Below, piece after piece: positions 25,851 through 59,194 of a stretch of DNA of 64,000 nucleotides. Numbering within the stretch: position 1 is the stretch's first letter; each line of letters starts with the position of its first letter. The notes beneath the pieces were generated by a model, which was not told where the DNA came from, made no database searches, and worked only from the letters and a program-made list of their open reading frames with translations. The position numbers and the translations under genes are program-made. Source of the stretch: Planctomycetota bacterium (GTDB lineage Bacteria; Planctomycetota; PLA2); assembly GCA_021776735.1 (NCBI GenBank), contig JAJFFH010000008.1, positions 4,490-68,489 on the forward strand, read 5' to 3'.

Positions 25851-28265
25851 ATGACCGAAGAGATCCGGCTCGACCAGGAAAGCGCGTTGCGTGGCTTCGG
25901 CTCGGTCAGTGGCGGTGAGGCGCAACGAACGGAGGAATCGACGGAGCCGCCGGAGCGGCGCTACAGCCTCGAGGGCAAGCTCGGTGCCGGCGGGATGGGC
26001 GAGGTTTTCCTCGTGCGCGACCGGGATCTTCGGCGCAACGTAGCGATGAAGATGTTGTGCGGGGCACCGGATGCGCAGGAGGAGTTGCGCCTGCACTTCA
26101 TCGCCGAAGCGCAGGCGACGAGCCAGCTTGAGCATCCGGGTATCCCGCCGGTGCATGAAATCGGCTTCACCGCGGAGGGCCGCGTCTACTTCACGATGAA
26201 GGTGTTGCGCGGCCGTACGCTCCGGGAGATCATCGATGCGCTTGTTGCATGCGATGCGGGGACGGAGACAGAGTTTACCCTGCACAGACTTGTGACCGTG
26301 CTCGAGCGCGTGGCCGAGACGCTTCATTTTGCGCACGAGTGCGGCGTCATCCATCGCGACCTCAAGCCAGCGAACATCATGCTCGGCGACTACGGCGAGG
26401 TCTATGTGATCGACTGGGGGCTCGCGCGGGTCGAGGGTCAGCAGGACCACGTCGGCGAGAGGCGCCTGCAGACCGCGCGCACCGAATCGGGCCACAAGAC
26501 GCAACACGGTGCGATCCTCGGCACCCTCCCCTACATGAGCCCGGAGCAGTCACTCGGGCAGGCCGACGAAGTTGATGCGCGCTCAGACATCTTCGCCATC
26601 GGGTGTGTCCTGTACGAGATCCTCACGCTGAAACCCGCGTATGACGCGGTCGACTTCTCCGGGTTGTACGCGCAGGTGATCAAGTGCGACTTTCCACCGG
26701 TGGGCTCGCGGAACCCGGAGCGTCCCGTGCCGGGGGAGCTGGAGGCGGCCTGCACCATGGCGATGGCGGCTCGCAAGTCGGAGCGGACATCGTCGGCGGG
26801 CGGGTTGGCGCGCGAGCTGCGTGCATGGCTGGACGGATCGAGCGAGCAGAAGCGGCGTCTCGCAGGGGCTGATTCCCTTGCGGCTCTCGGCGCGCGTGTC
26901 GGACAGCGGGTCGAGGCACTTCGCGGGCAGTTGCGCGACGCCGTCGGGCACGCGGAGGAAGAGGAGGCCCGATACGAGCCGTGGCAATCGCTGGACGAGA
27001 AGCAGTCCCTCTTGGAGGCGCGTCGGCGGGTCGCCGGGCTGCGTCATCGGCAGGCGACGGAGTTCGCGGAGGCGACGAAACTCCTGGACGCCGCGATCGT
27101 TCAAATGCCCAATCATGAGGGTGCCCGCGCGCAGATGGCCTCGCTCTGGAGCACGCGGCTGGAGGACGCGGAGCGGATCCGGGACGACGTGGAGGCCACG
27201 TACGCACTGAATATGGTTCGTCGCTTCGACGATGGCCCGCTCTCGGAGTTCATTTTGGGTGACGGCGTGCTCGACCTCCGCAGCGAACCTTCGTCGGCCG
27301 AGGTCGTCCTGCACCGCTACGAGGATCGCGGCGGCGTGCTGGAGGCGGTCGAGGACCGCGTGCTGGGCATGACGCCGTTGCGCACCCGGCTTCCCATGGG
27401 GTCGTATCTTTGCGTCCTGCGCTGGGAGGGGTGTGCCGATGTTCGCTACCCGGTCCACATCACGCGTTGCCGGGAGTGGAGCGCGACCGTGACGTTGCCC
27501 GCCCAAAGCGACATCGGCGACGGCTTCGTCTACGTCCCGGCAGGCCCTGCTCTGCTTGGTGAGGGCTCGCGGAAGTGCGAGGTCGATCCCGGCGACTTCG
27601 TTATCGGCCGGACGCCGGTCACGCTTGGCCAGTACGCCGAGTTCCTTGAGGATCTGGACCGCACGCGGGGTCGCTCGGCCGCGGCCGAGCATGTTCCGAA
27701 TATGCGCGGCGAAGGCGCGTTCTTGGAGCGCCGCGAGGACGGTCGGTATGCGATCCTCCGCACTGTTTGCGAGGGGTCCGCTCGCGAGCGGTGCGAGGTG
27801 CGCTACGGCGAGGGCTTTGAGCGCAACCTGCCCGTGTTCTGCGTGAGCTGGTACGACGCGCACGCCTACTGCACCTGGATGTCGGAACGGACGGGACGCA
27901 AGTGGCGGCTGCCGACCGAGGCAGAGCGGGAAAAGGCGAGTCGTGGAGTCGACGGCCGCTTGTTCCCGTGGGGCGACCTGCAGGATGCGTCCCTGGCGAA
28001 GTGTCGCGATTCATTCCCCGAAATCGCGCAACCCGAACCGGTCGGGGCGTTCTTGTCCGCTGTCTCGGTGTACGGCATGGCGGATGCCGCGGGCGGCGTC
28101 TGGGACTGGACGGACACGCCGTTCGACAACGACGAGACCTCGATGTTCGTGCGCGGCGGCGCGTGGAACGACGCGCCGGAATACTTGCGCTGTGCCTACC
28201 GCTACTGGATGGATGTCACCAGTCGGGGAACGCTGGTCGGGTTCAGGTGCGCGCGGAGCCTCTGA
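25851..28265 (+). CDS. Ser/Thr protein kinase fused to a formylglycine-generating-enzyme (SUMF1/FGE-sulfatase) domain
   Basis: Kinase motifs [32 protein letters not shown]. The C-terminal FGE-type domain has [15 protein letters not shown] and [18 protein letters not shown]. 804 aa. Confidence 0.9.
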
Positions 28266-30029: not shown

Positions 30030-32291
30030 ATGGCAGTAACTCCCGACGTCTTGTGGCAACGCTGGCGCCGTTCGCGGCGGGCGGATGCGTTTGAGACTCT
30101 CGTCAAGCCGCACCTGCCGTACGTCGCGGACCTTGCGCGGCGGCAGGGGGTTTCGGCGGCGGATGCCGAAGACGTGGTGCAGGAAACGCTGCTCGAACTT
30201 GCGCGCGAGCGCAGCGACGAGCCCGTGCGCGTCGGCGTGCGGCCGTGGCTTGCGCGGCGCGTGCGCTTTCGGGCCAAGAAATCGATTCGGTCGTCGGTGC
30301 GGCGACGGCGGCACGAACAGGCCGGCCGCCGGTCGCGCAAGACGGCGGACGAGACGAGTTCCGTGCGGCTCGAGGTGCGCGAAGAGGTCGAGGCGGCCCT
30401 GGCGCTGCTGCGGCCGGCGGAACGACAGGCAGTCGTGCTGCGCTACCTGCACGACATGGACTACCGCGAGATCGCCTACGTGCTCGGGGTGTCGGAGAAC
30501 GCGGGCCGGATCAAGGTGCATCGCGGCATCGGAAAGCTGCGGCGTTCGCTCGGCGGGCATGCGGCAGCGCTCGTTGCCGCGCTGGGCCTTCCGCGCATCG
30601 GCGAGGCCGCGGTCATTCTCAAGACGACCAGTATGGCGGTTGCGACCACGGCGGGCGCAACGGCCGGTATTGGGAAAGGGGTTCTTCTCATGGGCACCGG
30701 AATCAAGTTTGGTGCCGCCGTCGTGATCGGCGCGGCGATCGCCGCTGTCGGCATGATGGCGTTCTACGAGGGATCGACGGCGGGCCGCACGGAAGGGTCG
30801 CGCGGGTCTGGTATGCCGGTCGGGCGGTCGGTGGATCCGGACGGCCCTGCCACGACCCGCTTGATGGCGGAACTCGACGTCACGGGCGAGGAGGCGGAAT
30901 GGGTCAAGAATGCCCTGACGCACGAACGGCTGCGGCGCGAGAACGCGCGTATCCTGCCGGAGGACACCGGCCTCGACATCATCGAACGTCGTCTGAAATG
31001 GGACGCCGAGGTCGATGAGCTGGTCAGCGACTTCGACCGGTTCGCAGGTCACGTGCAGGCAGCGCCGGGCAAGGTTGCGCGTTTCGAAGCGACGGGCGAC
31101 GTGACGAAGGTCAACCTCGGCGAGCTTGCGCCGGGGGTCGCCGTGATCGAGTTCGGGCCGGGGACGTTCCAGCTCGGTCGTGGGTCGCGCGACTTTCACT
31201 ACGCGCGCAAAGACATTCGCCATCTCGAGATTCGGGGCGCGGGCATGGATCAAACCAGGGTTGTGCTCGGGTCGAGCGATCTACTGACTGCGGCCGCCCG
31301 AGTCGAGCATCTTCGCATTCACGACCTGACGCTGGACGGCGGCAAGCGAGGATCGATGTTTCTCGATGTCCGCGGCAAAGTCGCGGCCGTCTTCGAGAAG
31401 GTACGATTCAAGAGGTGGCCGAGCGGCGGATACAGCTCGGCCATCGGGCTGTCCGGCGGTGCCTACGTGGGCTGTCGCAATTGTGAGTTCCTCGGCGGGT
31501 ACGGACACGGCGGCACCGGCGTGATCTCGTTTCGCGGGACTGGAATTGCCTCGTTCGACCGCTGCGTCTTCGCGGACATACCGACGACGGTGTACGGAGG
31601 CAACGGGGCAGCCCCAAAGAGCGTGGTGCACTTCGAGCGCTGCGTCTGGGAAAACACACAGCTGGCCCATGCCGGCCTGCTCTATCAGGGCACCCGCGAG
31701 TTTCCGATCACGGTGCGCGGCGGCAAGGTCCACTACGAGTCCGCCAAGGCGTGGGGCCGGCAGTTCGCCCAGAGCGTAGAAGCCGTCGAGTTTTCCGCGC
31801 GCATTCCGCGGTGCCGCCTGTCGGACTTGCTGCGGATTGTGCGTGGCGTGAAGGCGAGCCTGGAGGAGGGCCAGCGTGTACAGGGCGTCCAGCTCGTGGC
31901 TGCGAGACCGGAGCCGCCGCGCGAATTCATCGTCTACCTATGGCATTCCTCGGACTACATCATGAGAATGCACAAGGCCAAGCGCTCGGTGCGGATAGCG
32001 CCGATCTATGTGACGTGGGAAGGATCGGGGGTCAAGATCTGGCCGGAAGACCGCCGCCGGCGGCTGCCCAACTACCACCCCGGTTCGCTGATGGAAGGTG
32101 CGCGCGATATTGAAGACGTGGTTGCGCGTGCCGGGCTCGATCCTTCGATGGAGGCCTACGGCATCATCCAGACGAGCCATTCCACGCGAGGCGCCGCGAC
32201 GCCCGCTGTCGAGTTGCGCGACGAGCGCGCCCGGAGGCAGGTGGTCCTTGACGCCGTCACGGGCGAGGTGCGGGCGAAGAACCCCCGGTAG
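30030..32291 (+). CDS. ECF-type sigma-70 domain fused to a TM segment and a large extracytoplasmic (beta-helix-like) domain
   Basis: Residues 1-190 have sigma region 2 (DAEDVVQETLLELARE) and region 4 (RQAVVLRYLHDMDYREIAYVLGVSENAGRIKVHRGIGKLRRSL). A hydrophobic stretch follows (GKGVLLMGTGIKFGAAVVIGAAIAAVGMMAF), then about 500 aa with repetitive G/V-rich strands. Single uninterrupted 753-aa ORF. Confidence 0.8.
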   Translation: MAVTPDVLWQRWRRSRRADAFETLVKPHLPYVADLARRQGVSAADAEDVVQETLLELARERSDEPVRVGVRPWLARRVRFRAKKSIRSSVRRRRHEQAGRRSRKTADETSSVRLEVREEVEAALALLRPAERQAVVLRYLHDMDYREIAYVLGVSENAGRIKVHRGIGKLRRSLGGHAAALVAALGLPRIGEAAVILKTTSMAVATTAGATAGIGKGVLLMGTGIKFGAAVVIGAAIAAVGMMAFYEGSTAGRTEGSRGSGMPVGRSVDPDGPATTRLMAELDVTGEEAEWVKNALTHERLRRENARILPEDTGLDIIERRLKWDAEVDELVSDFDRFAGHVQAAPGKVARFEATGDVTKVNLGELAPGVAVIEFGPGTFQLGRGSRDFHYARKDIRHLEIRGAGMDQTRVVLGSSDLLTAAARVEHLRIHDLTLDGGKRGSMFLDVRGKVAAVFEKVRFKRWPSGGYSSAIGLSGGAYVGCRNCEFLGGYGHGGTGVISFRGTGIASFDRCVFADIPTTVYGGNGAAPKSVVHFERCVWENTQLAHAGLLYQGTREFPITVRGGKVHYESAKAWGRQFAQSVEAVEFSARIPRCRLSDLLRIVRGVKASLEEGQRVQGVQLVAARPEPPREFIVYLWHSSDYIMRMHKAKRSVRIAPIYVTWEGSGVKIWPEDRRRRLPNYHPGSLMEGARDIEDVVARAGLDPSMEAYGIIQTSHSTRGAATPAVELRDERARRQVVLDAVTGEVRAKNPR

Positions 32292-32299
32292 ATGCGGCG

Positions 32300-32318
32300 G
32301 ACATCGCCGTCCGTTTGC
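32300..32318 (+). repeat. ATCGCCGTCCGT motif copy (exact core 32303-32314, top strand)
   Basis: GACATCGCCGTCCGTTTGC; 8 nt after stop 32291 and 44 nt before GTG 32363. Confidence 0.9.
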
Positions 32319-32350
32319 TTTCTCGGGGTTTGTTCCCGGGATCCTTTTGG

Positions 32351-32356
32351 CAGAAT
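32351..32356 (+). promoter_or_regulatory. -10-like hexamer CAGAAT, 6 nt before GTG 32363
   Basis: xAxAAT hexamer at leaderless-type spacing. Confidence 0.4.
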
Positions 32357-32362
32357 CCCTGT

Positions 32363-33610
32363 GTGCCGGTTCATGGAAGCGTTGAGAATTTCATCCCGTT
32401 TCGTCGTGCGGAGCTCGTCGAGTTTTGTGCGGACGAGGGGCGTCTGGATGACGGGGACGCGGGGCGTTTTCGGACGTTGGCGCGGCTTGTGTCGGCGCTC
32501 TACCACCACGAGTTTCACGAACGACTCGAGCGGTTGAAGGCGGCGTTCGCTCCGTACGATCCCGACGCCGACACGCGTGCCCTGGGCGAGGCGGGCGGCA
32601 TCGACGTCGGGGCCCTGGTCGAGGAGTTCGAGGACGTGCTGTTGCGCGCGAACTACGAGAAGGTTTCGGAGGCCGACCTCGAACTGGCGCTCGAGGAGCG
32701 TTCGCTGATTCAGTTCGACGTTCGCGTCGACTTCGACGACTTTCAGGACATGCTGCTCTACAAGCGCGGCGCGCGGTCCGTGCCCGTTGAGTTTCGCAAG
32801 GGCATCTGGCCGTTTCGCAAGACCAGGACGATGGTCGTCGAGAGCTTCGACCGGCTGGTGATGCTGCTGCGCTACAAGGACGCCGACTACTTCGCGCGCC
32901 GCGACCGCAAGCCGAAGAAGCTGCCGTTCGAGCCGGGAAAGATGTACGTGCAGCTCTTCAAGGACATCCCGCGCGCCGACTTCGAGGTTCTGTTTCCCAA
33001 CGTGCGCATCGGGATGACACGGAAGCACAAGGCGTTCTTCATCGTGCCGGCGCTCGGCGCGGGGATTCCGGTGGCGATCAAGGTCGTCGTCTCGCTGGCT
33101 GCGCTGTTTACGGCGATCTCGATCTTCCTCGGCCTCGAGAAGGGCGGCGACGCCGCCGCGATCGCGGGCGCCACGGCCGGGCTCACCGCGCTGGCGGCCC
33201 TCGGCGGCTACCTGTTCCGGCAGTACGCGAAGTACAAGGGCACGATCACGCAGTTCCTCAAAGGCATGACCGAGCAGCTCTTCTTCAAAAACATCGACTC
33301 GAATACCGGCGTGTTCCGCACCCTCATCGACGAGGCCGAGGAGGAAGAGGGCAAAGAGGCACTGCTCGCCTACTACCACCTGCTCGCCGGCGGATCCGCG
33401 ACCGCGTCCGACCTCGACCGCCGCATCGAGAAGTGGTTTGCCGACCGCCTCGACGCCAAGCTCGATTTTGAGATCGAGGACGCGCTGGGCAAACTCGAGA
33501 AGCTCGAACTCGTCCGCCGCAACGGCGAGGTCTTAGAGGCGCTGCCGCTACCGGACGCCATCCGCCGCGCCGACGAGATCTGGGACGGACTCTACGACCC
33601 GGACGCGTAG
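32363..33610 (+). CDS. DUF3754/TMEM143-like membrane protein
   Basis: QLFKDIPRADFEVLFPNVRIGMTRKHKAFFIVPALGAGIPVAIKVVVSLAALFTAISIFLGL resembles my memory of the DUF3754 core. Start set at GTG 32363; the ORF-track TTG 32315 lies inside the motif. Confidence 0.65.
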   Translation: MPVHGSVENFIPFRRAELVEFCADEGRLDDGDAGRFRTLARLVSALYHHEFHERLERLKAAFAPYDPDADTRALGEAGGIDVGALVEEFEDVLLRANYEKVSEADLELALEERSLIQFDVRVDFDDFQDMLLYKRGARSVPVEFRKGIWPFRKTRTMVVESFDRLVMLLRYKDADYFARRDRKPKKLPFEPGKMYVQLFKDIPRADFEVLFPNVRIGMTRKHKAFFIVPALGAGIPVAIKVVVSLAALFTAISIFLGLEKGGDAAAIAGATAGLTALAALGGYLFRQYAKYKGTITQFLKGMTEQLFFKNIDSNTGVFRTLIDEAEEEEGKEALLAYYHLLAGGSATASDLDRRIEKWFADRLDAKLDFEIEDALGKLEKLELVRRNGEVLEALPLPDAIRRADEIWDGLYDPDA

Positions 33611-33645
33611 GCCCAACCCGGAGGCAGCGTACGGACGGCGATGCC
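33513..33645 (+). repeat. direct repeat copy 1 (3' end of gene 32363..33610 plus motif)
   Basis: About 90 percent identical by eye to 36020..36146, with one 6-nt and one 1-nt indel. The two copies bracket the LRR gene. Confidence 0.85.
33627..33645 (-). repeat. ATCGCCGTCCGT motif copy (exact core 33631-33642, bottom strand)
   Basis: GCGTACGGACGGCGATGCC; 16 nt after stop 33610 and 11 nt before the LRR gene stop. Confidence 0.9.
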
Positions 33646-33656
33646 TTTGCGCGGGT

Positions 33657-35966
33657 TCAACGTGCGTGTTTCTTGCGGAGCTTGTTGGCTTGCGTTTCAA
33701 GGCGCGCATCGACGCGCAGCGCGGCTTCGCTCCGAAACACGGCCAGCGGTAGTGGACTCAGATCCTCGATGCCGCGACAGCGCGCGAGCGTCAGCGACCG
33801 CAGGTTCGGGAGTCCGCCCAGCGGCGAGAGATCACGAACCCCGTCCAGGTTTCCAATCGTCAGATGCTCGAGCCGCAAGAGGTTCGCCAGCGGTCGCAGA
33901 TCCTCGACGTGCTTCATGCCGACAAGCTGCAAGGTCGTCAGTCGCGCGAGTTGGCCCACCGGTCTCAGGCTGCGGATGTCTTGACAGTCCCGCAAGCCGA
34001 GCCGCGTGAGCCGGCCGTGACGCCCCAAGGGCGCGAGGTCCCGGGCTTGTACGCCGGTGAGCATGAGTGAACGCAACGTTCCCAGCGCCGCGAACGGATC
34101 GAGGTCGGAGAATTCGGCGGCGTTGTCGATGCGCAGCGTCGCAAGGCGCGGGAATCCCGCGAGCCTTCTCGCCAGGCGCGGCGTCGCCAGGCTCCCGATC
34201 TCGAGACGCTCGAGGTCCGGGAGTCCCTGCAACGTCTCGAGATCCTTGCGGCCGAGGCGCATGGTCGGCAACGAAACCGCGCGCAGTTTTCGCAGCTCGG
34301 CGAGCGGCGTGAGATCCGACACGGTGGTCGGAACGAGATACAGCGACGTCATTTCCGTCAAGGCGGCCAGCCTCGCGATCCGTCGGATCGTTCCGCAGCC
34401 TGCGACGGACACTGTTTTCAGGCGCACGAGTGTGCTGAGCGTCTCGAGATGCGAGAGGCCGGGGCAGCCCCGGATCGACACCTCCTCGAGTTGGTCCAAT
34501 CCCTTGAGCGGCGAAAAGTCGCGCGCCTTGCTCAAGTCCGATAGCTGGAGCCTGCGGAGATCGGCCAGGGCCGCGAGCGCTGTCAAGTCCTCGGCGCTCT
34601 TCAGGCCGTCCAGCGTGAGGATTCTGACCTTCTTGAGCTTGCCGAGCGCGCCCAAGCTCTTTATGCGCGGAAAGCCATAGAGCTGAAGCTTCTCGAGCTG
34701 CTCCAGACCGGCCAGGGCGTCGAGGTTCTCGGAATCGACGAAACCCGCGAGGTTCAACGACTTGAGCGCGGGCAGCAAGCCGATCCACTCCAGATCCTGG
34801 GCGCCGTGCTCCCGCTCCAGCCGAAGATCCTCGAGCGCGGCGCAGCCCCTGAGCACCGAAACGTCGCCGAGCTTGTCGCATTGCTGCAGGTCGAGACTGA
34901 CCAGCGCGGGCAGTTTCGCCAGCGCGCCTACATCGACCAACGCATCGCAATCCGTCAGTCCCAGGATCTCGAGCTTCGACAGGCCCGCCAGCGGCTTCAG
35001 GTCGGACAGAGTCTTGCACGCCATCACGTTCAGAAACCGAAGTCGCGACAGCGTCGCCAGCGGCGAGAGGTCTGCGAGTTCTCCCGAAGCGATGAGGTTG
35101 AGCCAGGCGAGTTTCGGAAGTGAGCCAAGGACGGCGATGTCCTTGAGCTCCTTGCATCCCTCGAGCCCGACGGTCTTGAGCACGCGCAGTGACTTGACGG
35201 GTCGCAGGTCGCTCACTCTCGGACAGCCGTAGACATCGAGAATCGAGAGCCTCTCGAGCCCGCGGAGATCCGCAAGGCCGGTGCGATCGGCGCACTCCCA
35301 GATGCTCAGCGAACGTAGGCGCGGGCTCCGATTCAGTGCCGTGAGGTTCGAGGCTCCCGCCGGGCCCGTGAGCATGAGCGCATGCAAGTGCGGCAGGCCG
35401 GCAAGCGGTGCGAGATCGAGTCTGCCGCGGCCTCCGCGCAGCGCTACCGCGACGATGTCGCCGCGACCCTTCAGCGAGGCGAGCTCGTTCGAGTCCACGT
35501 TCGAAGCCACGACGCAAAGATCGACGTTGCGCGGCGCCGCGGGCAGTTCGGCGAGCTGCGCCCCCTCGCACGACACGGTGAGGAGCCCGACGTGGTCCCT
35601 GAGAATCTGAGGCAGCGCATCCCACGCGCCCGGTTCGTCGCCGAGGACTCCGAGCAGGCGTCGTTCGCCGCCGTCGGTTCGCGTGAAAACGCGAAACCCG
35701 ACGCGCTCGAACCAGTGCTCGCGCCCGCCGCGATGCAGGCTCAACAGAGGAAGGTCGAGCGGCGTACGAATCCACTGCCCCGGTCGAATCCACAGCCCGT
35801 GCCCGGCGCCGTCGGCGGCCGTCAGAATCGCTTCAACGTGCTCCGGCCCCGACGCCCACGGGATCCGGGCCCGCCGCGATGTAACGGCACCCGAGTCGTT
35901 GCCGCAGCCAACCAGGAGCGCGAGTCCTACGAAGGCACACCGCACATGTGAGGACGCGCGACCCAT
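33657..35966 (-). CDS. leucine-rich-repeat (LRR) lipoprotein
   Basis: Lipobox FVGLALLVGC. About 25 tandem LRRs of 22-24 aa (LxxLxxLxLxxCxxLxDLxPLAxLxxL), for example LSKLEILGLTDCDALVDVGALAKLPALVSLDLQQCDKL. 769 aa. Confidence 0.85.
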   Translation of the reverse strand: MGRASSHVRCAFVGLALLVGCGNDSGAVTSRRARIPWASGPEHVEAILTAADGAGHGLWIRPGQWIRTPLDLPLLSLHRGGREHWFERVGFRVFTRTDGGERRLLGVLGDEPGAWDALPQILRDHVGLLTVSCEGAQLAELPAAPRNVDLCVVASNVDSNELASLKGRGDIVAVALRGGRGRLDLAPLAGLPHLHALMLTGPAGASNLTALNRSPRLRSLSIWECADRTGLADLRGLERLSILDVYGCPRVSDLRPVKSLRVLKTVGLEGCKELKDIAVLGSLPKLAWLNLIASGELADLSPLATLSRLRFLNVMACKTLSDLKPLAGLSKLEILGLTDCDALVDVGALAKLPALVSLDLQQCDKLGDVSVLRGCAALEDLRLEREHGAQDLEWIGLLPALKSLNLAGFVDSENLDALAGLEQLEKLQLYGFPRIKSLGALGKLKKVRILTLDGLKSAEDLTALAALADLRRLQLSDLSKARDFSPLKGLDQLEEVSIRGCPGLSHLETLSTLVRLKTVSVAGCGTIRRIARLAALTEMTSLYLVPTTVSDLTPLAELRKLRAVSLPTMRLGRKDLETLQGLPDLERLEIGSLATPRLARRLAGFPRLATLRIDNAAEFSDLDPFAALGTLRSLMLTGVQARDLAPLGRHGRLTRLGLRDCQDIRSLRPVGQLARLTTLQLVGMKHVEDLRPLANLLRLEHLTIGNLDGVRDLSPLGGLPNLRSLTLARCRGIEDLSPLPLAVFRSEAALRVDARLETQANKLRKKHAR

Positions 35967-35972
35967 GCCCCG

Positions 35973-35978
35973 ATCCTA
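35973..35978 (-). promoter_or_regulatory. -10-like hexamer TAGGAT, 6 nt before ATG 35966
   Basis: Bottom strand reads TAGGAT-cggggc-ATG; suggests the LRR gene has its own promoter. Confidence 0.5.
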
Positions 35979-36019
35979 CCGTGGGCGGGGCGGGATCGGG
36001 GACAAGGATCGAGGGTGTT

Positions 36020-36146
36020 CCGCTACGCAACGGCGAGGTCTTGGAGGCGCTGCAGGACGCCATCCGCCGTTTCGACGAGATCTGGGACGGACTCTACGGC
36101 CCGACGCGTAGGTCAATCCCGGAGGCAGCGTACGGACGGCGATAGC
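36020..36146 (+). repeat. direct repeat copy 2 (degenerate duplicate of the 3' end of gene 32363..33610 plus motif)
   Basis: Encodes ...RNGEVLEALQDAIRRFDEIWDGLY, compared with ...RNGEVLEALPLPDAIRRADEIWDGLYDPDA in the intact gene. A 1-nt deletion destroys the original stop context. Confidence 0.85.
36128..36146 (-). repeat. ATCGCCGTCCGT motif copy (exact core 36132-36143, bottom strand)
   Basis: GCGTACGGACGGCGATAGC at the end of direct repeat copy 2; 59 nt before the TIR gene stop. Confidence 0.9.
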
Positions 36147-36205
36147 CCCTGTGTCGGACACGAATCCCGTGGGAGGCGCTTGCACAAGGATCTGATCACG
36201 TTGAA

Positions 36206-37855
36206 TCAACGACTGCGGTGTGCGAGCCACCGCTTACGGTGAAATGCCAGCACGTAGTCGACGTGGCGGTTGGATGATCCCAGTCCTATTGAACCGGGTG
36301 ACGTGTTCTTGTCCGGCAGGATGTCGCGAAGGACCTCGTCGGCCAGTCGGAGGTTCAACAGTTGCATTTTGTCTGTAATGGACCCATCGCCGGCGAGGCT
36401 CTTTCGCACCGTCAGCATGCGGTTGAAGATCGTCGGAAACGCCGGCTGGCCGAGCGCAACGAGACTCTCCTTCGCGACCAGCGACTCGCCGACCGTGGCG
36501 TCGAACATCATGTCGATGAGCCGACCGATTCTTCGCGTGAAGCCTGGCGCATCGGCAGCGTTGCCGTGTTTTCTGATCGGCTCCACTCGTTCCTTCTTGC
36601 CGCGGAGTCCGATCGAGGAGGCAGCGCCCGGGCCCTCGAAGGCACCGCTCTTGTCGGATTTCGGCACGACCCGGCTGTCGGGCGCTATCTGGACCGCGAC
36701 CGTGTTGCTCTGGACAGTGCCCGTGTGCGTTTGAGCCGTCAGGTGGACGTGGAGCAGGCCGGTACGCGTGCCCCGGATCAGGACCGCGCCGTTTCTCGGG
36801 CCCTTCACGACCGCGGCGCTCGGGCGCGGGTCGCATTGCACTCGCAGCGCCGTGTCCGGAACGCTGTTCGATTCGAACGAGTAGCGGAGCGAGAACTCGT
36901 GACCGATCGTCGCCTCCCGCGGCCCTGCAAGGGTCAGCTTGGGTCGACCCCCTTCGTACTTTGATCGCTTCGGATTGTTGTCGCGAGAGACCAGCCAGAT
37001 CAGGAAGACTCCGAGCGGGATCAACCCAATCATGATCCAGCGGGCCTTGGTCGATCCCGGTGTCTTGTCGCGGCTACGCGTTGACCGCGGCGAGCTGATT
37101 GATTTCCGTGCATGCCCGCGCCGGCGCGTTCGCGCCCGATCAGACCTCCGTCGGTGTTTCGTGCGGGTCTTGCCCTTCCTCTTTCGTGTGGGAACCGGGT
37201 TGGGCTGTTCGTCGATGTTGGGTACAGGCCCGGGTTCGGGTTCGGGTTCGGGTTCGGGTTCGGGTTCGGGTTCGGGTTCGGGTTCGGGTTCGGGTTCGGG
37301 TTCGGGGTCGGGGTCGGGTTCGGGTTCGGGGTCGGGTTCGGGTTCGGGTTCGGGTTCGGGGTCGGGTTCGGGTTCGGGGTCGGGTTCGGGTTCGGGATCC
37401 GTCGTCGGTCCCGGCGAGGCGATTGCGGACGAGTCGGGTTCGGTGGCACGCTGGTAGTTCAGCAGTTCCGCAACGGCGCGCGACAGGTGGTCCAGGTGTT
37501 CGTCCAGCGGTTCGGTCAAGGCATCGAGCCAGTGGGAAGCTCCGATGTAGTACTCGACCGCGTCGCTCGGGGGCCTGTCCTGGATTCGGAATGGGAGAAT
37601 CGCCGCGTTGTTTGCCACGGCACGCTCCAGCTCGCGAAGCACCTGACTCGATTGATTGGAGTGTTCCGAGTAGATGAGCACAAACACCCTTGCGCTCCGA
37701 ATCGCACGGTTGATCTCGCCGGCCCATGTCGCGCCCGCACGAATGTCGCGCGGCGCGATCCAGCAACGGACGCCCGCCGCCTCCAGCCGTGCGCAGGCCG
37801 CGTCGGCCACAGGCTTGTCCTTCGTAGAGTGGCAAATGAAGATATCGTGCGCCAC
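36206..37855 (-). CDS. membrane-anchored TIR-domain protein (N-terminal TIR, acidic PE/PD repeat, TM, extracytoplasmic domain)
   Basis: TIR_2-like [80 protein letters not shown]. Then about 55 residues of (P-E/D)n, a basic stretch, the [19 protein letters not shown], and a C-terminal domain of about 270 aa. Confidence 0.85.
37231..37396. repeat. hexanucleotide microsatellite (GGGTTC/GGGGTC)n, about 27 units, inside the TIR gene
   Basis: Read directly from the sequence. On the coding strand it gives the PEPEPD... linker. The unit length of 6 keeps any expansion or contraction in frame. Confidence 0.95.
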
Positions 37856-37953
37856 GGGTCAGCCGTTTCAGGTCGCCCGCAGGCTACCATCGACGGCACG
37901 CCGCGATAACCCCGGCTCTCCGAAGGATCCGCGAAGCCTCTCGACGCAGGACG

Positions 37954-38778
37954 CTACCCCTTCCGGATCGCTTGCGCGGCCATCTTGCTCGCGAAGCGCA
38001 GCGCGCCGCGGCCCGACTTCGCGTTTTCGTCGAGGACCGGCAAGGCGCTCCTGGCCGCCGCTCCGATCTTGCCCAGCGCGTGCGCCGCCTTGGCGCGCGT
38101 GAAGTCCGGCTTGCCCGACTTGACCGCTTCGATGAGCGCGGGCACCGCGTCGGCCGCGGCCGGTCCGATCTTTCCCAGCCCCTCGGCCATGTGCGGGCGA
38201 TTCTTTGCCGGTCCGTCTTGAAGCAGCTCGATCAGGCGCGGGATCGCGACGTGGCCGGTCTTACCGAGGCGCCCGAGGGCCTGGGCGACGTGCTGCGCAT
38301 CGACGGGATGCTCCAGCAGCTTGATCAACGCGGGCATCGCCGGTCCGGCGCCGTCGCCCATTTCGGCGATCTTGCTGATCGCGAACGCGCGATTCGAATC
38401 CGCCTCGTCGTTGCGCGCCACAGTGACCAGCGCATCGCGCACCTTCGCGAGCAGCGCCGGATGTTTCTGAAAGTGCCCCGGCGCCGACGGCAACGACATG
38501 ATCGCCATCGCGCGCTGTTTCTTGTCGGCACTCTTGAGGTTCGCCAGCGTCGGATCGACCTGCGCCGGGGTGTACTGCATCAGCTTGAACGCCGGGATGT
38601 CCGGCTTTCGCGCGGGCGTCCGGGTCGGGGGCGGTTCCTCGTCGTCGTCGCCACATCCGCAGCCGGGATTCGTATCAGTCGAGCAGCCGCAGCCCTGGTC
38701 GAACGACGAGTCGTCGTCCGGCTCTTGGTCGCAGGCGCAAAGAGCGAGCATCAGGCAGAGTGAGATAGCGTGCTTCAT
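37954..38778 (-). CDS. HEAT-repeat lipoprotein
   Basis: Lipobox LMLALCAC followed by a Cys/Asp-rich spacer. HEAT-like repeats include AMPALIKLLEHPVDAQHVAQALGRLG, AIPRLIELLQDGPAKNRPHMAEGLGKIG, AVPALIEAVKSGKPDFTRAKAAHALGKIG. Confidence 0.8.
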   Translation of the reverse strand: MKHAISLCLMLALCACDQEPDDDSSFDQGCGCSTDTNPGCGCGDDDEEPPPTRTPARKPDIPAFKLMQYTPAQVDPTLANLKSADKKQRAMAIMSLPSAPGHFQKHPALLAKVRDALVTVARNDEADSNRAFAISKIAEMGDGAGPAMPALIKLLEHPVDAQHVAQALGRLGKTGHVAIPRLIELLQDGPAKNRPHMAEGLGKIGPAAADAVPALIEAVKSGKPDFTRAKAAHALGKIGAAARSALPVLDENAKSGRGALRFASKMAAQAIRKG

Positions 38779-42284: not shown

Positions 42285-42854
42285 CTACGTCCGCGCCAAG
42301 CCGCGTGCCCGTCGCGCGAGCCGGTGGGCCTTGCGGAAACGGTCCAGCGCGCGCAGCCGGGCGCGCCGGGCCGCCTCGTACGTCACGCCGAGTCGCGCCG
42401 CCATCTCGTCGAGTTCCACGTCCTCGCAGGACCAGCGTACGAGTTGCTGGTCGCGCGGCAGCAGTGCGGTCACGGCGTCGTAGGCGATGGCCAGCGCCTC
42501 GCGCCGTTCGGCGAAGGTCGCGGGTCCGGTCGAGTCGCGCACCGGCTCCGCAGCCGCGTGCGCGTCGCTGGTCGATGACGCCGCCTCGGTCAGGCGCAGC
42601 AGTGCGCCCGGCCGCCGCCGCACGGCCATCCAGTACGCGTGACGGTCCGCCAAGTGCGAGCGCGCCAGCTGGTGCATCCATTCCAGGAACGGTTTTTTGC
42701 CGCGGAACTCGAAATGCTCCTGCTTGAGCGCGCGCAGGTGGATGCCCTGCACCAGATCCTCCGGCGCCTCGAAGCGCAGCACGCGGCCGCCGCGGCGGGT
42801 GACGAAGGCCAGTAGCGCCTCGCGATGACGCTGGAGCAGTTCGGCCAGCGTCAC
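42285..42854 (-). CDS. ECF sigma factor, translationally coupled to the upstream Ser/Thr kinase
   Basis: 189 aa from GTG 42854. Region 2-like PEDLVQGIHLRALK and region 4-like RDQQLVRWSCEDVELDEMAARLGVTYEAARRARLRALDRFRKA. The start overlaps the kinase stop as GTGA. Confidence 0.8.
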   Translation of the reverse strand: MTLAELLQRHREALLAFVTRRGGRVLRFEAPEDLVQGIHLRALKQEHFEFRGKKPFLEWMHQLARSHLADRHAYWMAVRRRPGALLRLTEAASSTSDAHAAAEPVRDSTGPATFAERREALAIAYDAVTALLPRDQQLVRWSCEDVELDEMAARLGVTYEAARRARLRALDRFRKAHRLARRARGLART

Positions 42855-45784
42855 GGCCGCCTCCGCAGGACGAGACGAAACCCGAATTGCGTTGCCTTGC
42901 GCGTGCGGTGCGCCCCGAGCCCGTTCTCCAACCGAAACTCGGACGGCTTGGCCGAGGCCCACGAGCCGCCGCCGAGGCGGCGAAAGTCGGGATTCGACGG
43001 GTAGGGCGTGGCGAGCCACTCCTGCACGCTGCCGGTCATGTCGTAGATGCCGCGCGGGTTGCAGTCCGTCGGGTACGACATGACTGGCTCGGGCCCCGGC
43101 TTTGCCCGCGAGAAGTTCGAGTTGGTCCACCGCGGCCAGAACACGTTGCCGAAAGCAAAGGCCCAGCTGCCCAGCCCCTGGCCCGCGCGCAGCCACTCGG
43201 CGTAGGTCGGCAGGGCGTACACCATGCCCGCCGGCGTCGCGCGGTTGCGCCACGCGACAAACGCCTCGGCGTCGTCGAAGCTGATCCCGAGTACGGGCCA
43301 GCGCGGGCGCCATGTATCGGGCAGTCGATACCGACCGTCGGATGTCTTGGGCCAGAATCCGCCTTGAGCTTCGTTGTGGGGGGCGTGGGGGCAGTACTTT
43401 CCGCGTGCCCCCGGCGCTTCGTTGATAAACGCCAGGTACTCCGCGCACGTGACCTCCCGCTCCATGATCCAAAACGGTTCGCCCCGCTCCGCGACGTGGA
43501 CGAATCCCGCCGGCGCCGCTTCCGCGGGGGGCAGCCGCACCGGCAGCTCGAGGGGGTTGGAGCCCAGCATCACGCGGACATTCCGGCAATCCGCGTGGCG
43601 AAACAGCGCGACGTACAGCGAGCTGCTCGGCAGGGCGATTCGTAACGGTGTCTTGCCCACGTATGCCGTCTTCGTCGGCAGCAGCGGGGTCGCCGTCGGG
43701 CGCAGCGCAAGTCCCTTCGGCAACGTGATCGTGACCAGACCGCCGTTGCGCCACACCTGCGCCTCGACTCCGCCGCGGGCTGCGAGCGCCTCGGGCGCGC
43801 CGACCTCGATGCCGAGGACCGCCAAGCTTTCGCCACGCACGTCGCCGGCGTGCTGGAAACGGAACACGCTGCCCTCGGTGTGGTGCGCATCCCACGCCGC
43901 GCGCACCGGGACGTCGTCGATTTGGAGGAGCCGGTCGCCGGTGGCCACCTTCGAGTTGCCCCGCAGCACGAGGACCGCGTCCCGGATCGGATGTCCGGCG
44001 AGTTTCACGATCCACCACGGCCGATCGACGACACGCAGCGCCCACGTGGCGGGGGACAATACGGGATCGCCCTGCCACGGCACCGGCACCCGCCGCCGGC
44101 TTCCGCCGGGGACCACGTCGGCCTCCTCCAAAAAGCGCCACAAGAAAACCTCGGCGCCGGGCGGATCGGTTGAGAACTCCTGCCCGTACTCGCCGTACCC
44201 GAGGTCGAGCTGTGGATCCTCGCGACGCGCCCGGTCCTTCCAGAACCGCCTGGTGACGGGGTTGTTTTCGACCTGGGAGCGGCGCTTGTACAGCCGCGCC
44301 CGCACGGCCCGCACGTTTTTCACGTCGGTGTCGAGCTGCCGGGCGCGGTGCAGCATTTCGAGCGCGCGATGGAACTTGGCGGATCGCGCAAGCTGCAGTC
44401 GCCGTACCTCGGCGCGTCCGTCGAGCAGCCGGCGCTCCTCGTCGTGGTCCAGGTGTTTGCTGGCGATGTAGGACTCGAGCACGGCAACCTCGCCTTCGAA
44501 CTTGCGCGAGTCGGACCAGTCCTGCCGCAGCTCCTCGCCGAGCGCGTCCGCGCGGGCGACCATGTCTTGGGCCCGGCCTGCGCGTTCGCGCGCCGCCCGC
44601 CAGCGCTGCACGCCAAAGATGGCGGCGCCGAGCAGAAGTGCGGTCAGCGCCATCGCGGCCGCCGGATGACGGCGAATCCAGCGCAGCGTTTTCTTGAGGG
44701 GGCCCGGGGGCCGCGCGCGGATCGGAGCGTCGTCGAGGACGGCCGTGAGATCGTCGGCAAAAGCGCGGGCCGACGCGTAGCGCGCGCGCGGCTCCTTCGC
44801 GATCGCCTTTTGCACGACGGTGTCGAGGTCGCGCGGCAGCGACGGGTCGAGCTTGCGCGGTGCGACCGGTTCCTCGATGAGGATGCGCCGCACGACCTGT
44901 TCGATGCTGCCGCCCGCGAACGGCGTGCGTCCGGTGAGCAGTTCGTAGAGCACGACGCCGAGTCCGTACACGTCCACGCGCGCGTCGATGTCGTGGCCCA
45001 TGATCTGTTCGGGCGCGGAGTAGAGCGGCGAGCCCGCGTAGGTCTGCGTGAGACCCGCCGTCGCCTCGGCGTCGCGTGCGATGCCGAAGTCGAGCAGCAA
45101 CGGCCGGCCATCGGCCGCCAGCCGAATGTTGGAGGGCTTGACATCGCGATGAACGATGCCGTGGTCGTGCGCGTGTTGCAGCGCGTCTGCGAGCGCGCGC
45201 GCCCAGCCGGCCGCCTGCCGCCACTTCGGTCGCGCCGATAGCTTGTCGAGGTTTTGTCCCTCGACAAGCTCCATCGCGATGTAGTCGTCGCCGACCTCGT
45301 GGACCTGTGCGATGTGCGGATGCGTCAGGCGGGCGGCCGCGCGTGCTTCCCGCCGGAACCGTTCAACGGTGGTGGAGGATCCAAGCAGGTCCGGGCGGAT
45401 CATCTTCAGCGCGACGCGACGCCCCAAGGACTCCTGCTCGGCGAGGTACACGCGCCCCATGCCACCTTCGCCGAGCAGCGAGAGAATGCGAAACTCGCCG
45501 ACGCTTTCCGGGATCCCGTCGTGGGCTCTCGTTTCGTTTCCGCAATCCTGCGCTTGCGCTGCGCTGCGGTAGAGCCGGTACAGCGTCTCGATCCGCGCGC
45601 GCGCCTCGCCTCCGAGTTCCGGGTATCCCGTCAGAAAACGGTCGGGCGATTCCACGTCGCCGGCGAGGCACCGGTCCAGGTAGGCGTCGTAGAGTTCCTC
45701 CTCGGTACGCGCCACGTCGCCATCGTACCGGGCGCGCGGTCCGATTCCCGGGGCCGAACAAGAAAAGGGGCCCAAGCGCACCAT
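42851..45784 (-). CDS. Ser/Thr protein kinase fused to a formylglycine-generating-enzyme (FGE-sulfatase) domain
   Basis: GEGGMGRVYLAEQ, HRDVKPSNIRL, DFGIARD, a TM near AAAMALTALLLGAAIF, and C-terminal ALPTYAEWLRAGQG, RRLGGGSWAS. Start set at ATG 45784, because the longer ORF would overlap the gene at 45979. Confidence 0.9.
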   Translation of the reverse strand: MVRLGPFSCSAPGIGPRARYDGDVARTEEELYDAYLDRCLAGDVESPDRFLTGYPELGGEARARIETLYRLYRSAAQAQDCGNETRAHDGIPESVGEFRILSLLGEGGMGRVYLAEQESLGRRVALKMIRPDLLGSSTTVERFRREARAAARLTHPHIAQVHEVGDDYIAMELVEGQNLDKLSARPKWRQAAGWARALADALQHAHDHGIVHRDVKPSNIRLAADGRPLLLDFGIARDAEATAGLTQTYAGSPLYSAPEQIMGHDIDARVDVYGLGVVLYELLTGRTPFAGGSIEQVVRRILIEEPVAPRKLDPSLPRDLDTVVQKAIAKEPRARYASARAFADDLTAVLDDAPIRARPPGPLKKTLRWIRRHPAAAMALTALLLGAAIFGVQRWRAARERAGRAQDMVARADALGEELRQDWSDSRKFEGEVAVLESYIASKHLDHDEERRLLDGRAEVRRLQLARSAKFHRALEMLHRARQLDTDVKNVRAVRARLYKRRSQVENNPVTRRFWKDRARREDPQLDLGYGEYGQEFSTDPPGAEVFLWRFLEEADVVPGGSRRRVPVPWQGDPVLSPATWALRVVDRPWWIVKLAGHPIRDAVLVLRGNSKVATGDRLLQIDDVPVRAAWDAHHTEGSVFRFQHAGDVRGESLAVLGIEVGAPEALAARGGVEAQVWRNGGLVTITLPKGLALRPTATPLLPTKTAYVGKTPLRIALPSSSLYVALFRHADCRNVRVMLGSNPLELPVRLPPAEAAPAGFVHVAERGEPFWIMEREVTCAEYLAFINEAPGARGKYCPHAPHNEAQGGFWPKTSDGRYRLPDTWRPRWPVLGISFDDAEAFVAWRNRATPAGMVYALPTYAEWLRAGQGLGSWAFAFGNVFWPRWTNSNFSRAKPGPEPVMSYPTDCNPRGIYDMTGSVQEWLATPYPSNPDFRRLGGGSWASAKPSEFRLENGLGAHRTRKATQFGFRLVLRRRP

Positions 45785-45966
45785 TGCGCGCGGCCCCCGG
45801 TGTTGCCCGCCCGCCTCGGGGGCGCCGCGGGTGGAGCTCTTGGCGCCGCCCGACCATCCGGATCGGCCCGGTCCATTCCCGTAGTTGCGAAGCGTGCCCC
45901 AAGACCGAACAGCCCAGCGGAAGAAAACAAGCGAGTGCGCCCGTGCCGGGTCCGGTCGTAACTCGC

Positions 45967-45972
45967 TACACT
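45967..45972 (+). promoter_or_regulatory. -10-like hexamer TACACT, 6 nt before ATG 45979
   Basis: TAnnnT hexamer at leaderless-type spacing. Confidence 0.45.
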
Positions 45973-45978
45973 GCAGCG

Positions 45979-46344
45979 ATGCACGTCCGGATGATCGCGG
46001 TGGCGGCGGTCCTTGTCGGCTGTGCACGGTCGGAAACGGAGACACCGATGAATACGGACGCTCGCTGGTGGCAGTTGCTCGATGCCACAGTTCCTGCCCG
46101 CGGTGCGGGCACGGACGAGCACGCGCAGGCCGTCACCAACCTCATGCCCGGGAGCCACGAACGCGGATCGTGTGAATCCCTCCTTTATGCCGCGGCAGAG
46201 GCCCACGAGGCGAAGACGGACGGCGAGGAGTTGCCCTGGGACGACTCCGTGGCGCGCAAGACCGAGCCGGACGGCGAGCGCTGGGACGAGCGCCGCGTTC
46301 ACGAGCTGTGCCCGGAGCTCGCCAAGCGCTTCAATTGGAAGTAG
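45979..46344 (+). CDS. small lipoprotein (121 aa)
   Basis: MHVRMIAVAAVLVGC lipobox; acidic mature part. No domain recognised. Confidence 0.6.
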   Translation: MHVRMIAVAAVLVGCARSETETPMNTDARWWQLLDATVPARGAGTDEHAQAVTNLMPGSHERGSCESLLYAAAEAHEAKTDGEELPWDDSVARKTEPDGERWDERRVHELCPELAKRFNWK

Positions 46345-57918: not shown

Positions 57919-57976
57919 GCAGCCGTTCCCATTCACGAACGACGTTCACGTAGCGCATGCTGATCGCGCACCGGGA

Positions 57977-58384
57977 TCAACCCGGCGTTCGCGAACGCTG
58001 ACTCTGGATGAGCCGCGTCAACATCGCGCCGACCCGGTTCGTGTATGAGAGCAGCTCGTCGGACGTGTCCTGCGAGATGACCTTGACGATCGTGGCCAGC
58101 TCGAGAGCCGCGGCACCCTCGAGGCACTCCGCCTGCGCGATGGTGTAGCGGTAAGCCTTGTCCGCCGGCTTCCAGCGCCCCGCACCCTCGGCGATATTGA
58201 GAACCGTGGCCGTAGCGCAACGCCGCAACTGGTCCTTGATCGCTCCGTAACCACGCGGGAACGAAGCAGCCGATTCTTCGACGCCAGCAAACAGCAAGAT
58301 CGCGACCCGATAGACATCAAGCCGTTGGTGAGGTGCCAGGGACGATGCCCGGGAGGCCGCGGAGAAGTTTCGGTTGTCGGTCAT
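57977..58384 (-). CDS. four-helix-bundle protein (23S rRNA intervening-sequence protein / Avd-like family)
   Basis: 135 aa. [77 protein letters not shown] matches the TIGR02436-type pattern. AAGGAG Shine-Dalgarno. Confidence 0.85.
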
Positions 58385-58510: not shown

Positions 58511-58602
58511 CGTTCGCGTTCACGAACGACGTTCACGTTCACGTAGTGCTTGCTGGATACGCGGGAGTCGATCATTCGAACAACCCGCGACGTAGACGCG
58601 AC
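58511..58602 (+). repeat. 86-nt repeat unit U3 (with a 6-nt internal duplication)
   Basis: CGTTCGCGTTCACGAACGACGTTCACGTTCACGTAGTGCTTGCTGGATACGCGGGAGTCGATCATTCGAACAACCCGCGACGTAGACGCGAC. Confidence 0.9.
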
Positions 58603-58810
58603 CCGACCCCGACCCCGACCCCCGACCCCGAACCCGAATGACGTTCGCGTTCACGTAGCGCTTGCTGACTCGAACGACGGCGGGACGATCAACGCACCCT
58701 GCGCGGGCGCTCTAATTCGGGTGGGCGACCTGGGGGGAGGGGGCCTAGCGCCCCCTTCCACTTGCGTGGGGCGATTGGCGCCCCCCGTCGCAACCCTGGA
58801 GGAACTCCAA

Positions 58811-59194
58811 GTGAACCATTCTCTTTCACCGTTCGCTCACGAAAGGCTCGATGTCTATCGTGTCGCGCTGCGGCTGTTTTCCGATGTTGAAGAGGTTGTG
58901 AATCTGGCGCCCGCCGGACACGGCGATCTCCTCAGACAACTTCGGCGCTGTGCTGCGTCGACGGTGCTCAACATCGGAGAGTGTGCGAACCGCGGGCACC
59001 ACAAGGACAAGGCATCTCGCTTCATCATTGCTCGCGGCGAATGCGGCGAGTGTGCGTGTGCGTTGGATCTTCTGCACGTCTGCGGGCTGGCGTCCGCCGC
59101 CAGGGTCGCGTCGCTCAAGAACACCGCTCGCAGAGTTGCGGCGATGCTCACCGGGCTCATCCGCCGCGAACGGCGGTTGGCGGAGTCGGGCTGA
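58811..59194 (+). CDS. four-helix-bundle protein (23S rRNA intervening-sequence protein / Avd-like family), paralogue
   Basis: GTG 58811 with GGAGGA upstream. [77 protein letters not shown]. Confidence 0.85.
   Translation: MNHSLSPFAHERLDVYRVALRLFSDVEEVVNLAPAGHGDLLRQLRRCAASTVLNIGECANRGHHKDKASRFIIARGECGECACALDLLHVCGLASAARVASLKNTARRVAAMLTGLIRRERRLAESG

Follow-up and report, generated by a model that had tools for sequence, protein, structure and literature searches.

A 64,000-nt window of a Planctomycetota contig, by which we mean the whole stretch of DNA that was analyzed, carries a minus-strand gene (36206..37855) for a 549-aa protein in which a TIR domain, a single transmembrane (TM) helix and a predicted extracytoplasmic tail follow one another. 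The initial annotation had combined this TIR-TM protein with the products of the two adjoining genes, one lipoprotein made of leucine-rich repeats (LRRs) and another made of HEAT repeats, into a Toll-like receptor (TLR) split over several polypeptides. The LRR and HEAT genes are mere neighbors and not parts of the system, whereas the receptor-like logic recognized in that annotation (sensor outside, TM helix, TIR inside) is present within one polypeptide. We consider it somewhat probable that the TIR-TM protein is a self-contained transmembrane sensor, whose ectodomain, a PEGA-like β-sandwich followed by a five-helix domain, would control the NADase or signaling output of the cytoplasmic TIR domain.

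The modules of the protein are readily told apart. The TIR domain (residues 1-135; 37451..37855, minus strand, like all modules that follow) leads into an acidic (PE/PD)n linker (residues ~146-212; 37231..37396), which is encoded by a hexamer array identified with Tandem Repeats Finder (TRF) and contains 28 Asp and Glu residues and 32 prolines but no Lys or Arg. A basic juxtamembrane stretch with 22 Lys and Arg residues, predicted to be cytoplasmic (residues 213-270; 37046..37219), precedes the single TM helix (residues 271-289; 36989..37045), the sole segment in a hydropathy scan with a Kyte-Doolittle mean above 1.5. Beyond the membrane come a β-rich region (residues ~305-395; 36671..36943), weakly PEGA-like and tentatively an Ig-like β-sandwich, and a five-helix C-terminal domain (residues ~435-549; 36209..36553) that belongs to an unnamed family from Planctomycetota metagenome-assembled genomes (MAGs). 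The order of spacer, basic stretch, helix and ectodomain is the one originally described; the ectodomain is a little shorter, with 260 residues after the helix rather than the ~270 claimed. The gene starts with GTG, and a stop one codon before it leaves no room for an upstream extension (stop-to-stop segment 36209-37858); the N-terminus agrees with the consensus MAHDVFISHS of the TIR family described below, and the GC content at third codon positions (GC3) is 0.77 in each half of the gene.

The protein is most likely a single-pass type II membrane protein (N-in, C-out). We place the TIR domain inside and the tail outside mainly because no N-terminal signal peptide was detected in the protein, because a charged part of 270 aa precedes the helix and because relatives of the helical domain occur in a secreted context. 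These relatives carry more weight than the charge bias. In four of them (P0122, P0129, P0133 and P0142; P numbers denote individual relatives and L numbers the loci examined) the domain stands behind a cleavable signal peptide or a lipobox, and in four others (P0124, P0127, P0130 and P0135) it is preceded by a Zn-ribbon, a TM helix and, between the two, a basic stretch; it can therefore be regarded as an extracytoplasmic module. Among the 40 residues nearest the helix of the TIR-TM protein, Lys and Arg number 17 against two Asp and Glu on the N-terminal side, and eight against five on the C-terminal side. The prediction agrees with the cytoplasmic TIR domain of the initial annotation and does not place that domain outside the cell.

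On sequence grounds, the TIR domain appears to be catalytically competent. Pfam TIR_2 (PF13676) covers residues 5-115 (E = 3.9e-23; 82.7 bits vs a cut-off of 28), and the domain contains Box1, a Box2-like RDxxxG motif, HWLDA and a candidate catalytic Glu, E75, in the VLRELERA context to which attention had already been drawn and which falls within the TIR domain at residues 72-79. E75 is unchanged in 81 of 81 family sequences, across phyla, as are F6, W32, S69, W109 and D111, so that on sequence grounds this is not a TIR domain lacking its catalytic Glu; E75 aligns with the Glu in "KELD" of PdTIR (3h16) and with that of TIR-STING (6wt6), the position after strand βC at which NAD+-cleaving TIR enzymes have their catalytic Glu, an equivalence established by sequence alignment only. 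When a profile of 20 relatives was compared with PDB sequences, Hydra TRR-2 was the best match (4w8g/4w8h, E = 1.7e-9), followed by TIR-STING and Cat1. The AlphaFold2 (AF2) model of the domain has a predicted local distance difference test (pLDDT) score of 94.3 and the flavodoxin-like α/β fold of TIR domains; with it, Foldseek found 198 PDB matches at E <= 1e-3, and the best 50 of these 198 are all TIR domains. The NAD+-bound TIR of MapSPARTA comes first (TM-score 0.82), and Hydra TRR-2, SARM1 (0.72-0.76), plant TIRs, MAL, MyD88 and AbTir (0.78) are also among the matches. PADLOC gives only generic, domain-level TIR matches (SAVED-TIR, Aga TIR and ThsB, the last at 4e-5) of at most 35 bits, and NCBIfam gives only a weak match to a retron-TIR domain, in line with the earlier impression that the architecture is not that of a described system.

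The ectodomain is far less conventional. When the 260-aa tail was searched by word-based homology, no sequence other than the tail came back, and a HMMER search over 1.84e9 representative proteins returned 41 relatives at E <= 1e-3, all but two of which match only the last ~110-150 residues. The helical domain is a divergent member of its unnamed family (30-38% identity), with the motifs IDxL, AGxxSL, GKPAFP, LKLADExLR and HYxRW; its named relatives are "hypothetical protein" entries from Planctomycetota MAGs, and an AF2 model made with the family alignment contains five helices at a pLDDT of 90.9. For the β-rich region, residues ~334-380 match repeats of P0136 (E = 6e-9, eight stretches), a protein with 19 PEGA-domain stretches; Pfam itself gives no match on this region, and we assign it only tentatively as a PEGA-like β-sandwich. 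By eye, "ALGxPAFPxI" in the helical domain has a HEAT-like look, but a comparison by hhalign with the neighboring HEAT protein was negative (probability 1.3%). A metagenome scan for the helical domain yielded eight loci, most of them short (1.4-3.2 kb), to which five contexts with 8-10 kb flanks were added. Two settings of the domain can be discerned there: a Zn-ribbon-TM-domain protein encoded between uvrB and a T2SSF-like gene (L086:7088-11446, L095:3491-5531, L100:10001-11983, L101:10001-12210), and a secreted two-copy protein encoded between an Endonuclease_NS lipoprotein and an inorganic pyrophosphatase (L082:251-2619, L094:6993-9664).

Comparison with relatives of the TIR domain points to a sensory role. 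The family, which we call "CWIAPRD" after a motif that is conserved across phyla together with HWLDA and that the window protein also fits, has TIR domains of 45-60% identity across phyla and at least 591 relatives confirmed by tblastn (contigs, one genome per species) in Verrucomicrobiota, Acidobacteriota, Gemmatimonadota, Chloroflexota, Planctomycetota, Binatota, Proteobacteria and a few archaea. From these, 80 loci totaling 1.35 Mb were examined, 51 of them with full 10-kb flanks; the 80 loci contain 92 TIR open reading frames (ORFs). In 83 of the 92, a single TM helix lies 155-310 residues after the TIR start and is followed by a tail of 150-900 residues, a plan that the window protein matches with its helix at 271-289 and its variable C-terminal domain. 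The closest TIR relatives are 45-60% identical over only 24-29% of the protein, the remainders being unrelated to the window protein's tail; they comprise FGE-sulfatase, periplasmic binding protein plus DUF1080, Ank, Sel1, TPR, pre-peptidase-type repeats, ThuA, kinase or nothing known. Pfam matches in the tails of the 80-locus set include TPR (8), Sel1 (7), FGE-sulfatase (3), SH3_3 (3) and WD40 (2), and LRR is absent from the 25 most frequent of the 138 Pfam families in TIR-family proteins; the Pfam family ThsB_TIR matches 22 of 81 members. Near-identical TIR domains can carry unrelated tails, as in P0012 vs P0016, and two or three TIR-TM genes with different tails form tandem paralog arrays in several loci (L035:7933-14898, L050:8513-14344, L024:10001-12786, L033:10001-12548, L014 and L037); L080 and L070 have two copies apiece, and in L070 the strands of the two are opposite. 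A conserved TIR domain, exchanged tails, near-identical TIR domains with unrelated tails and tandem paralogs together argue that in this family one conserved output domain has been combined with putative sensor modules that are shuffled among its members.

Clusters of TIR-TM paralogs of this kind are reminiscent of receptor-gene clusters. Another observation, made once, concerns P0006, the closest TIR relative with a long context: on its contig (L098:8351-9916), the TIR-TM gene is preceded, at a distance of 85 nt, by a same-strand gene for an NAD synthase (CN_hydrolase + NAD_synthase), a notable neighbor for a putative NAD+-consuming enzyme. Full-text literature searches found no description of the family or of membrane-anchored bacterial TIR receptors; one survey goes no further than to mention the diverse architectures of prokaryotic TIR groups (PMC7075850).

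All ORFs of the 80 loci were also clustered against each other. Antisense TIR shadows aside, the sole recurrent neighbor of the TIR family is a ~600-aa protein with DUF4231 and SLATT_1, both two-TM effector domains, and an additional unassigned N-terminal domain; it occurs in 15 of the 80 loci and is directly adjacent to the TIR gene in about 10. The SLATT gene can be on the same strand (L003:1851-5501, L025:6146-9943, L016:8342-9982), divergent (L038:8026-9852, L044:7980-9899, L061:8014-9870) or convergent (L032:10832-12535). Pairs of TIR-TM and SLATT genes look like a membrane-tethered version of type VII Thoeris, the name given to TIR + SLATT operons that are validated antiphage systems using canonical cyclic ADP-ribose (cADPR) (bioRxiv 10.64898/2025.12.03.692087). 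The 64-kb window holds neither a SLATT homolog nor a second TIR gene.

We posit that the flexible acidic spacer and the basic stretch tether the TIR domain to the TM helix, and that ligand binding or clustering of ectodomains could assemble the TIR domains on the cytoplasmic side of the membrane. Enzymes of the TIR class must oligomerize to be active. The assembled TIR domains would then deplete NAD+ or produce a cADPR-type signal for an effector. At about one-fifth of the family loci, this effector would probably be the adjacent DUF4231/SLATT membrane protein, following the logic of type VII Thoeris; for the window gene, which has no linked effector, the output could be (i) NAD+ depletion itself or (ii) a signal to an effector encoded beyond the 64-kb window.

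Several observations weigh against a self-contained sensor of this kind. The 64-kb window contains no gene for an effector such as SLATT, SIR2 or Macro, and the neighborhood is not a recognizable defense island, its PADLOC matches being the domain-level ones of <=35 bits mentioned above. The charge bias becomes modest close to the membrane, with five Lys and Arg residues on each side within 15 residues of the helix. A Foldseek search with the helical domain gave no PDB match below E = 1, and a search of RNA runs found the locus in none of them.

The strongest alternative, which we nevertheless consider unlikely, is that the tail senses nothing: the TIR domain would be a scaffold or an NADase that is constitutive or otherwise regulated, and the ectodomain would do no more than anchor or localize it in the envelope, where a secretion or pilus platform could be the site. 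Scaffolding is the role of many TIR domains, the family consensus contains the Box2-like RDxxPG motif typical of scaffold-type animal TIRs (PMC7075850), and the structural neighbors of the domain include MAL and MyD88 besides NADases; moreover, the T2SSF-like platform gene next to the helical domain in four loci hints at a role in envelope machinery. However, invariance of the candidate catalytic Glu across phyla and a best structural match to an NAD+-bound NADase TIR argue against a scaffold, the extreme variability of the tails and the tandem paralog arrays have the look of receptor diversification rather than anchoring, and the SLATT effector neighbors imply that a signal is produced in at least part of the family.

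A second alternative would retain one of the two lipoproteins. The HEAT gene (37954..38778, minus strand; 274 aa; Pfam HEAT_2, E = 1.5e-17) encodes a protein with a lipobox and Cys16 according to a PROSITE-type rule, a pattern match only, and in a two-gene module the HEAT lipoprotein could be a periplasmic coreceptor or inhibitor of the ectodomain, the LRR protein being irrelevant. The HEAT gene lies 98 nt upstream of the TIR-TM gene, which has the same orientation, and no terminator-like site separates the two on their strand; the HEAT gene is unique within the 64-kb window; among relatives of the helical-domain gene, L094 has a gene for a HEAT-repeat lipoprotein 1 kb away (E = 6e-15) and L096 a weak HEAT match 3 kb away. 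Against the module, in L094 the HEAT and helical-domain genes have opposite strands and a further gene intervenes, no HEAT gene lies near the helical-domain genes of L086, L095, L100 and L101, the similarity of the HEAT proteins is only at the level of generic repeats, and a profile comparison of the ectodomain with the HEAT protein shows no similarity.

The partnership was put to a broader test by comparing all ORFs of 80 aa or more from the 80 TIR-family loci with the LRR, HEAT, DUF3754, ectodomain and 1102-aa proteins of the window. A HEAT match was found in one of the 80 loci, 8 kb from the TIR gene, an LRR match in none, even at E < 1, and no other window protein was matched; as a positive control, LRR genes of control loci are detected by this search at E values of 1e-48 to 1e-72. 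P0006 and P0010, the two closest TIR relatives with context, have neither an LRR nor a HEAT partner. Cotranscription of the HEAT and TIR-TM genes is possible, but their linkage is not conserved, and we regard a functional HEAT-TIR module as improbable. The DUF3754 protein, which has two TM helices and whose gene was formerly convergent with the TIR gene, was likewise considered as an effector and rejected, a DUF3754 gene being present in none of the 80 loci.

The remaining alternatives concern the integrity of the gene and of the gene cluster. The (GAACCC)n array that encodes the acidic linker (37231-37396; 27.7 copies by TRF) could have misjoined a TIR half and a TM-ectodomain half that belong to different genes. 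Short-read contigs of the source metagenome, for which the locus is present in the Logan run SRR15505515, do break in the array, one per side (20,249 bp at a depth of 12.2 and 17,810 bp at a depth of 11.9); each ends 33 nt into it, and only the assembly of the window itself bridges 37259-37366 (108 nt). No record of the exact 549-aa product exists, the only recorded product being one of 275 aa that starts inside the TM helix, and the same hexamer forms noncoding arrays elsewhere in the genome (57823-57918, 57670-57705 and 59449-59470). The join is nonetheless very probably correct, and an assembly artifact highly improbable, because the two contigs have nearly equal depths; because the frame is kept whatever the number of hexamer units; because the pure, uninterrupted hexamer run measures only 72 nt (37232-37303), the remainder containing GAC variants, so that ordinary 150-nt reads can bridge the array; because each half is missing what the other provides, the downstream one showing no plausible start ahead of the TM helix and the family's TIR domains continuing into linker, TM helix and tail in the 83 of 92 ORFs noted above; and because a PE-rich linker between TIR and TM helix recurs in the homolog P0004. 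The other arrays of the window are intergenic, and ORFs through them are short in any frame, ~100 aa or fewer. Some of these arrays belong to a repeated element: 57736-59516 holds five copies of ~135-155 nt, each ending in an (ACCCGA)n/(GAACCC)n array with the same hexamer as that of the PE linker, the longest of which is 57823-57918 (16 units), and the elements flank two 23S_rRNA_IVP four-helix-bundle genes (57977..58384, minus strand, and 58550..59194, plus strand).

The LRR gene (33657..35966, minus strand) encodes, as initially described, an LRR lipoprotein of 769 aa (LRR_4, E = 1e-32; internalin-like by Pfam and NCBIfam), with the lipobox AFVGLALLVGC and Cys21 again assigned by pattern match only under a PROSITE-type rule. 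Of the protein, also stated to be made almost entirely of LRRs, these span residues ~188-740, and the first ~170 aa are non-LRR and have no Pfam match. The best relatives of the protein are only 32-36% identical. The same annotation had cautioned that the gene looks inserted, and this proved well founded. A segment made up of the final 93 nt of the DUF3754 gene and the 32 nt downstream of it (33518..33642, plus strand) recurs as a relic at 36026..36143 on the same strand (~91% identity, with 6-nt and 1-nt deletions). The relic starts 62 nt past the TIR stop codon and makes up most of the upstream region of the LRR gene; the two copies have an exact 23-mer in common, which is present twice vs zero expected, and in a phmmer search DUF3754 matches the ORF 35885-36142 (E = 9e-9). 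Because this ~120-nt direct duplication of the DUF3754 3′ end brackets a 2.5-kb segment that holds the LRR gene only, we take the LRR gene to be an insertion between the DUF3754 and TIR genes, which would once have been convergent neighbors.

Where the initial annotation called the insertion recent, the data suggest that it is not very recent: the GC3 and codon usage of the LRR gene bear no clear foreign signature, and fragmentary contigs of a second sample (X2) also span the junction, at 33628-33796. The lack of a foreign codon signature also means that the insertion is not obviously a recent interphylum transfer. Contig joints that skip from 33643 to 36124/36128 were considered as an insertion-free allele and set aside as alignment artifacts, since they rest on 21-nt sides in the duplicated 23-mer. 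Around GGACGGCGAT, the intervals 33619-33652, 35123-35146 and 36115-36151 have 20-29-nt matches in many contigs of the same metagenome (depth ~12); these shared matches could be due to chance in 1 Gb of GC-rich data or to a short dispersed motif.

Least probable is the three-gene receptor itself, in which the LRR lipoprotein, alone or together with the HEAT lipoprotein, would bind a ligand outside and dock on the TIR-TM ectodomain to signal inside. Its attractions are plain: the three ORFs are present at the coordinates originally given and share the minus strand, the gaps between them being short at 98 nt (HEAT-TIR) and 240 nt (TIR-LRR), both lipoproteins are predicted to share the extracytoplasmic compartment of the ectodomain, and animals offer a precedent in Hydra, where a membrane-anchored TIR protein has no ligand-binding domain (PMC7075850) and where the best PDB sequence match of the family profile, TRR-2, is found. 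This model is largely refuted by the lack of co-occurrence across genomes, not only in the 80 TIR-family loci but also in the three closest LRR relatives with long contigs, which have no TIR neighbor, and in the ectodomain-relative loci (the eight metagenome loci and five flanked contexts), which have no LRR gene; in addition, the LRR gene is flanked by the duplication of its neighbor's 3′ end, the TIR-TM chain itself has no LRR by Pfam, and family members have their own sensor-like domains in cis.

The neighbors of the TIR-TM gene are, besides HEAT and LRR, the DUF3754 gene (32315..33610; Pfam DUF3754, E = 2.8e-30) and a gene for a CarboxypepD_reg-like lipoprotein (Pfam); a lipobox pattern with Cys14 is found in the 1102-aa neighbor (PROSITE PS51257-type rule, a pattern match only). 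Directly upstream of the DUF3754 gene, a 753-aa ORF (30030-32291, plus strand) encodes an ECF-type sigma factor (N-terminal regions 2 and 4) fused to a C-terminal extension of ~550 aa. A promoter/terminator scan of the locus was uninformative.

A self-contained sensor in the window invites a wider claim, which is possible but which we advance with considerable doubt: that the "CWIAPRD" TIR-TM family comprises true transmembrane receptors of bacteria and archaea, in which a diversifying outside module senses phage adsorption, envelope damage, a factor from a neighboring cell or a nutrient, whereupon the TIR domain would make a cADPR-type signal or burn NAD+, with SLATT pore effectors in part of the family. 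To our knowledge, those bacterial TIR proteins that have been studied (Thoeris, SPARTA, CBASS/Pycsar, CRISPR-associated TIRs and retron-TIR) are cytoplasmic and respond to intracellular cues. If the claim is true, the family would be a prokaryotic counterpart of outside-in TIR signaling of the TLR and interleukin-1 receptor (IL-1R) type and the first immune or stress sensor of the TIR kind to respond without the invader having to enter the cell. The family pattern, seen in hundreds of species from many phyla, would put TIR signaling under extracytoplasmic sensing, a testable parallel to Toll-like and IL-1 receptors. With the LRR/HEAT neighborhood coincidental, the single TIR-TM gene becomes the starting unit for work on the locus.

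Within the window, the closest parallels in layout are two proteins that combine a Ser/Thr kinase with an FGE-sulfatase module of C-type-lectin fold (25851..28265, plus strand, and 42851..46045, minus strand), in which an N-terminal output domain is likewise joined to a C-terminal module; the same FGE-sulfatase module is found on the TIR-family members P0014, P0015, P0022 and P0024 and in three of the 80 loci. Their output domain is a kinase rather than a TIR, and the likeness is one of domain order. Among TIR proteins, the closest solved folds are those of the NADase TIRs of SPARTA (TIR-APAZ), SARM1 and AbTir, with a Glu at the equivalent sequence position. The regulatory partners differ, being Argonaute/APAZ in SPARTA and ARM-SAM in SARM1, and none of the three is known to be membrane anchored with an ectodomain.

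With Thoeris, the family shares a TIR_2-type domain with a conserved Glu, weak ThsB matches (PADLOC and, in about a quarter of the sequences, Pfam ThsB_TIR) and, with type VII in particular, the SLATT_1 membrane protein that stands next to the TIR gene in the 15 loci described above. As far as is known, Thoeris TIR proteins are soluble and sense infection inside the cell, whereas the TIR of the protein described here is membrane tethered with a large domain predicted to face outward. Its SLATT partners, ~600 aa long, have the extra N-terminal domain, and the window gene has no effector neighbor and hence does not form the operon of TIR and effector genes by which Thoeris is recognized.

Hydra has a split TLR composed of HyTRR and HyLRR, in which the TIR-TM protein works with a separate LRR membrane protein, and TRR-2 is both the top PDB sequence match and one of the top structural matches of the family TIR. 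The window protein differs in having its own 260-aa ectodomain, and the adjoining LRR gene is an unconserved insertion. With TLRs and IL-1 receptors of animals, it has in common a binding domain outside, a single TM helix and a TIR domain on the cytoplasmic side, as predicted here, together with the TIR fold, Box1 and a Box2-like RDxxPG/AG motif; it has neither an LRR ectodomain nor an LRR partner in conserved linkage, and it lacks the type I orientation. The arrangement is reversed, with an N-terminal TIR domain in a type II protein vs a C-terminal one in a type I protein, and the ectodomain would be a PEGA-like β-sandwich plus a helical bundle instead of LRR or Ig-C2 domains. We know of no MyD88-like adaptor in bacteria, and the invariant Glu and the SPARTA/SARM1-like fold suggest that the output of this TIR domain is enzymatic rather than the recruitment of adaptors.

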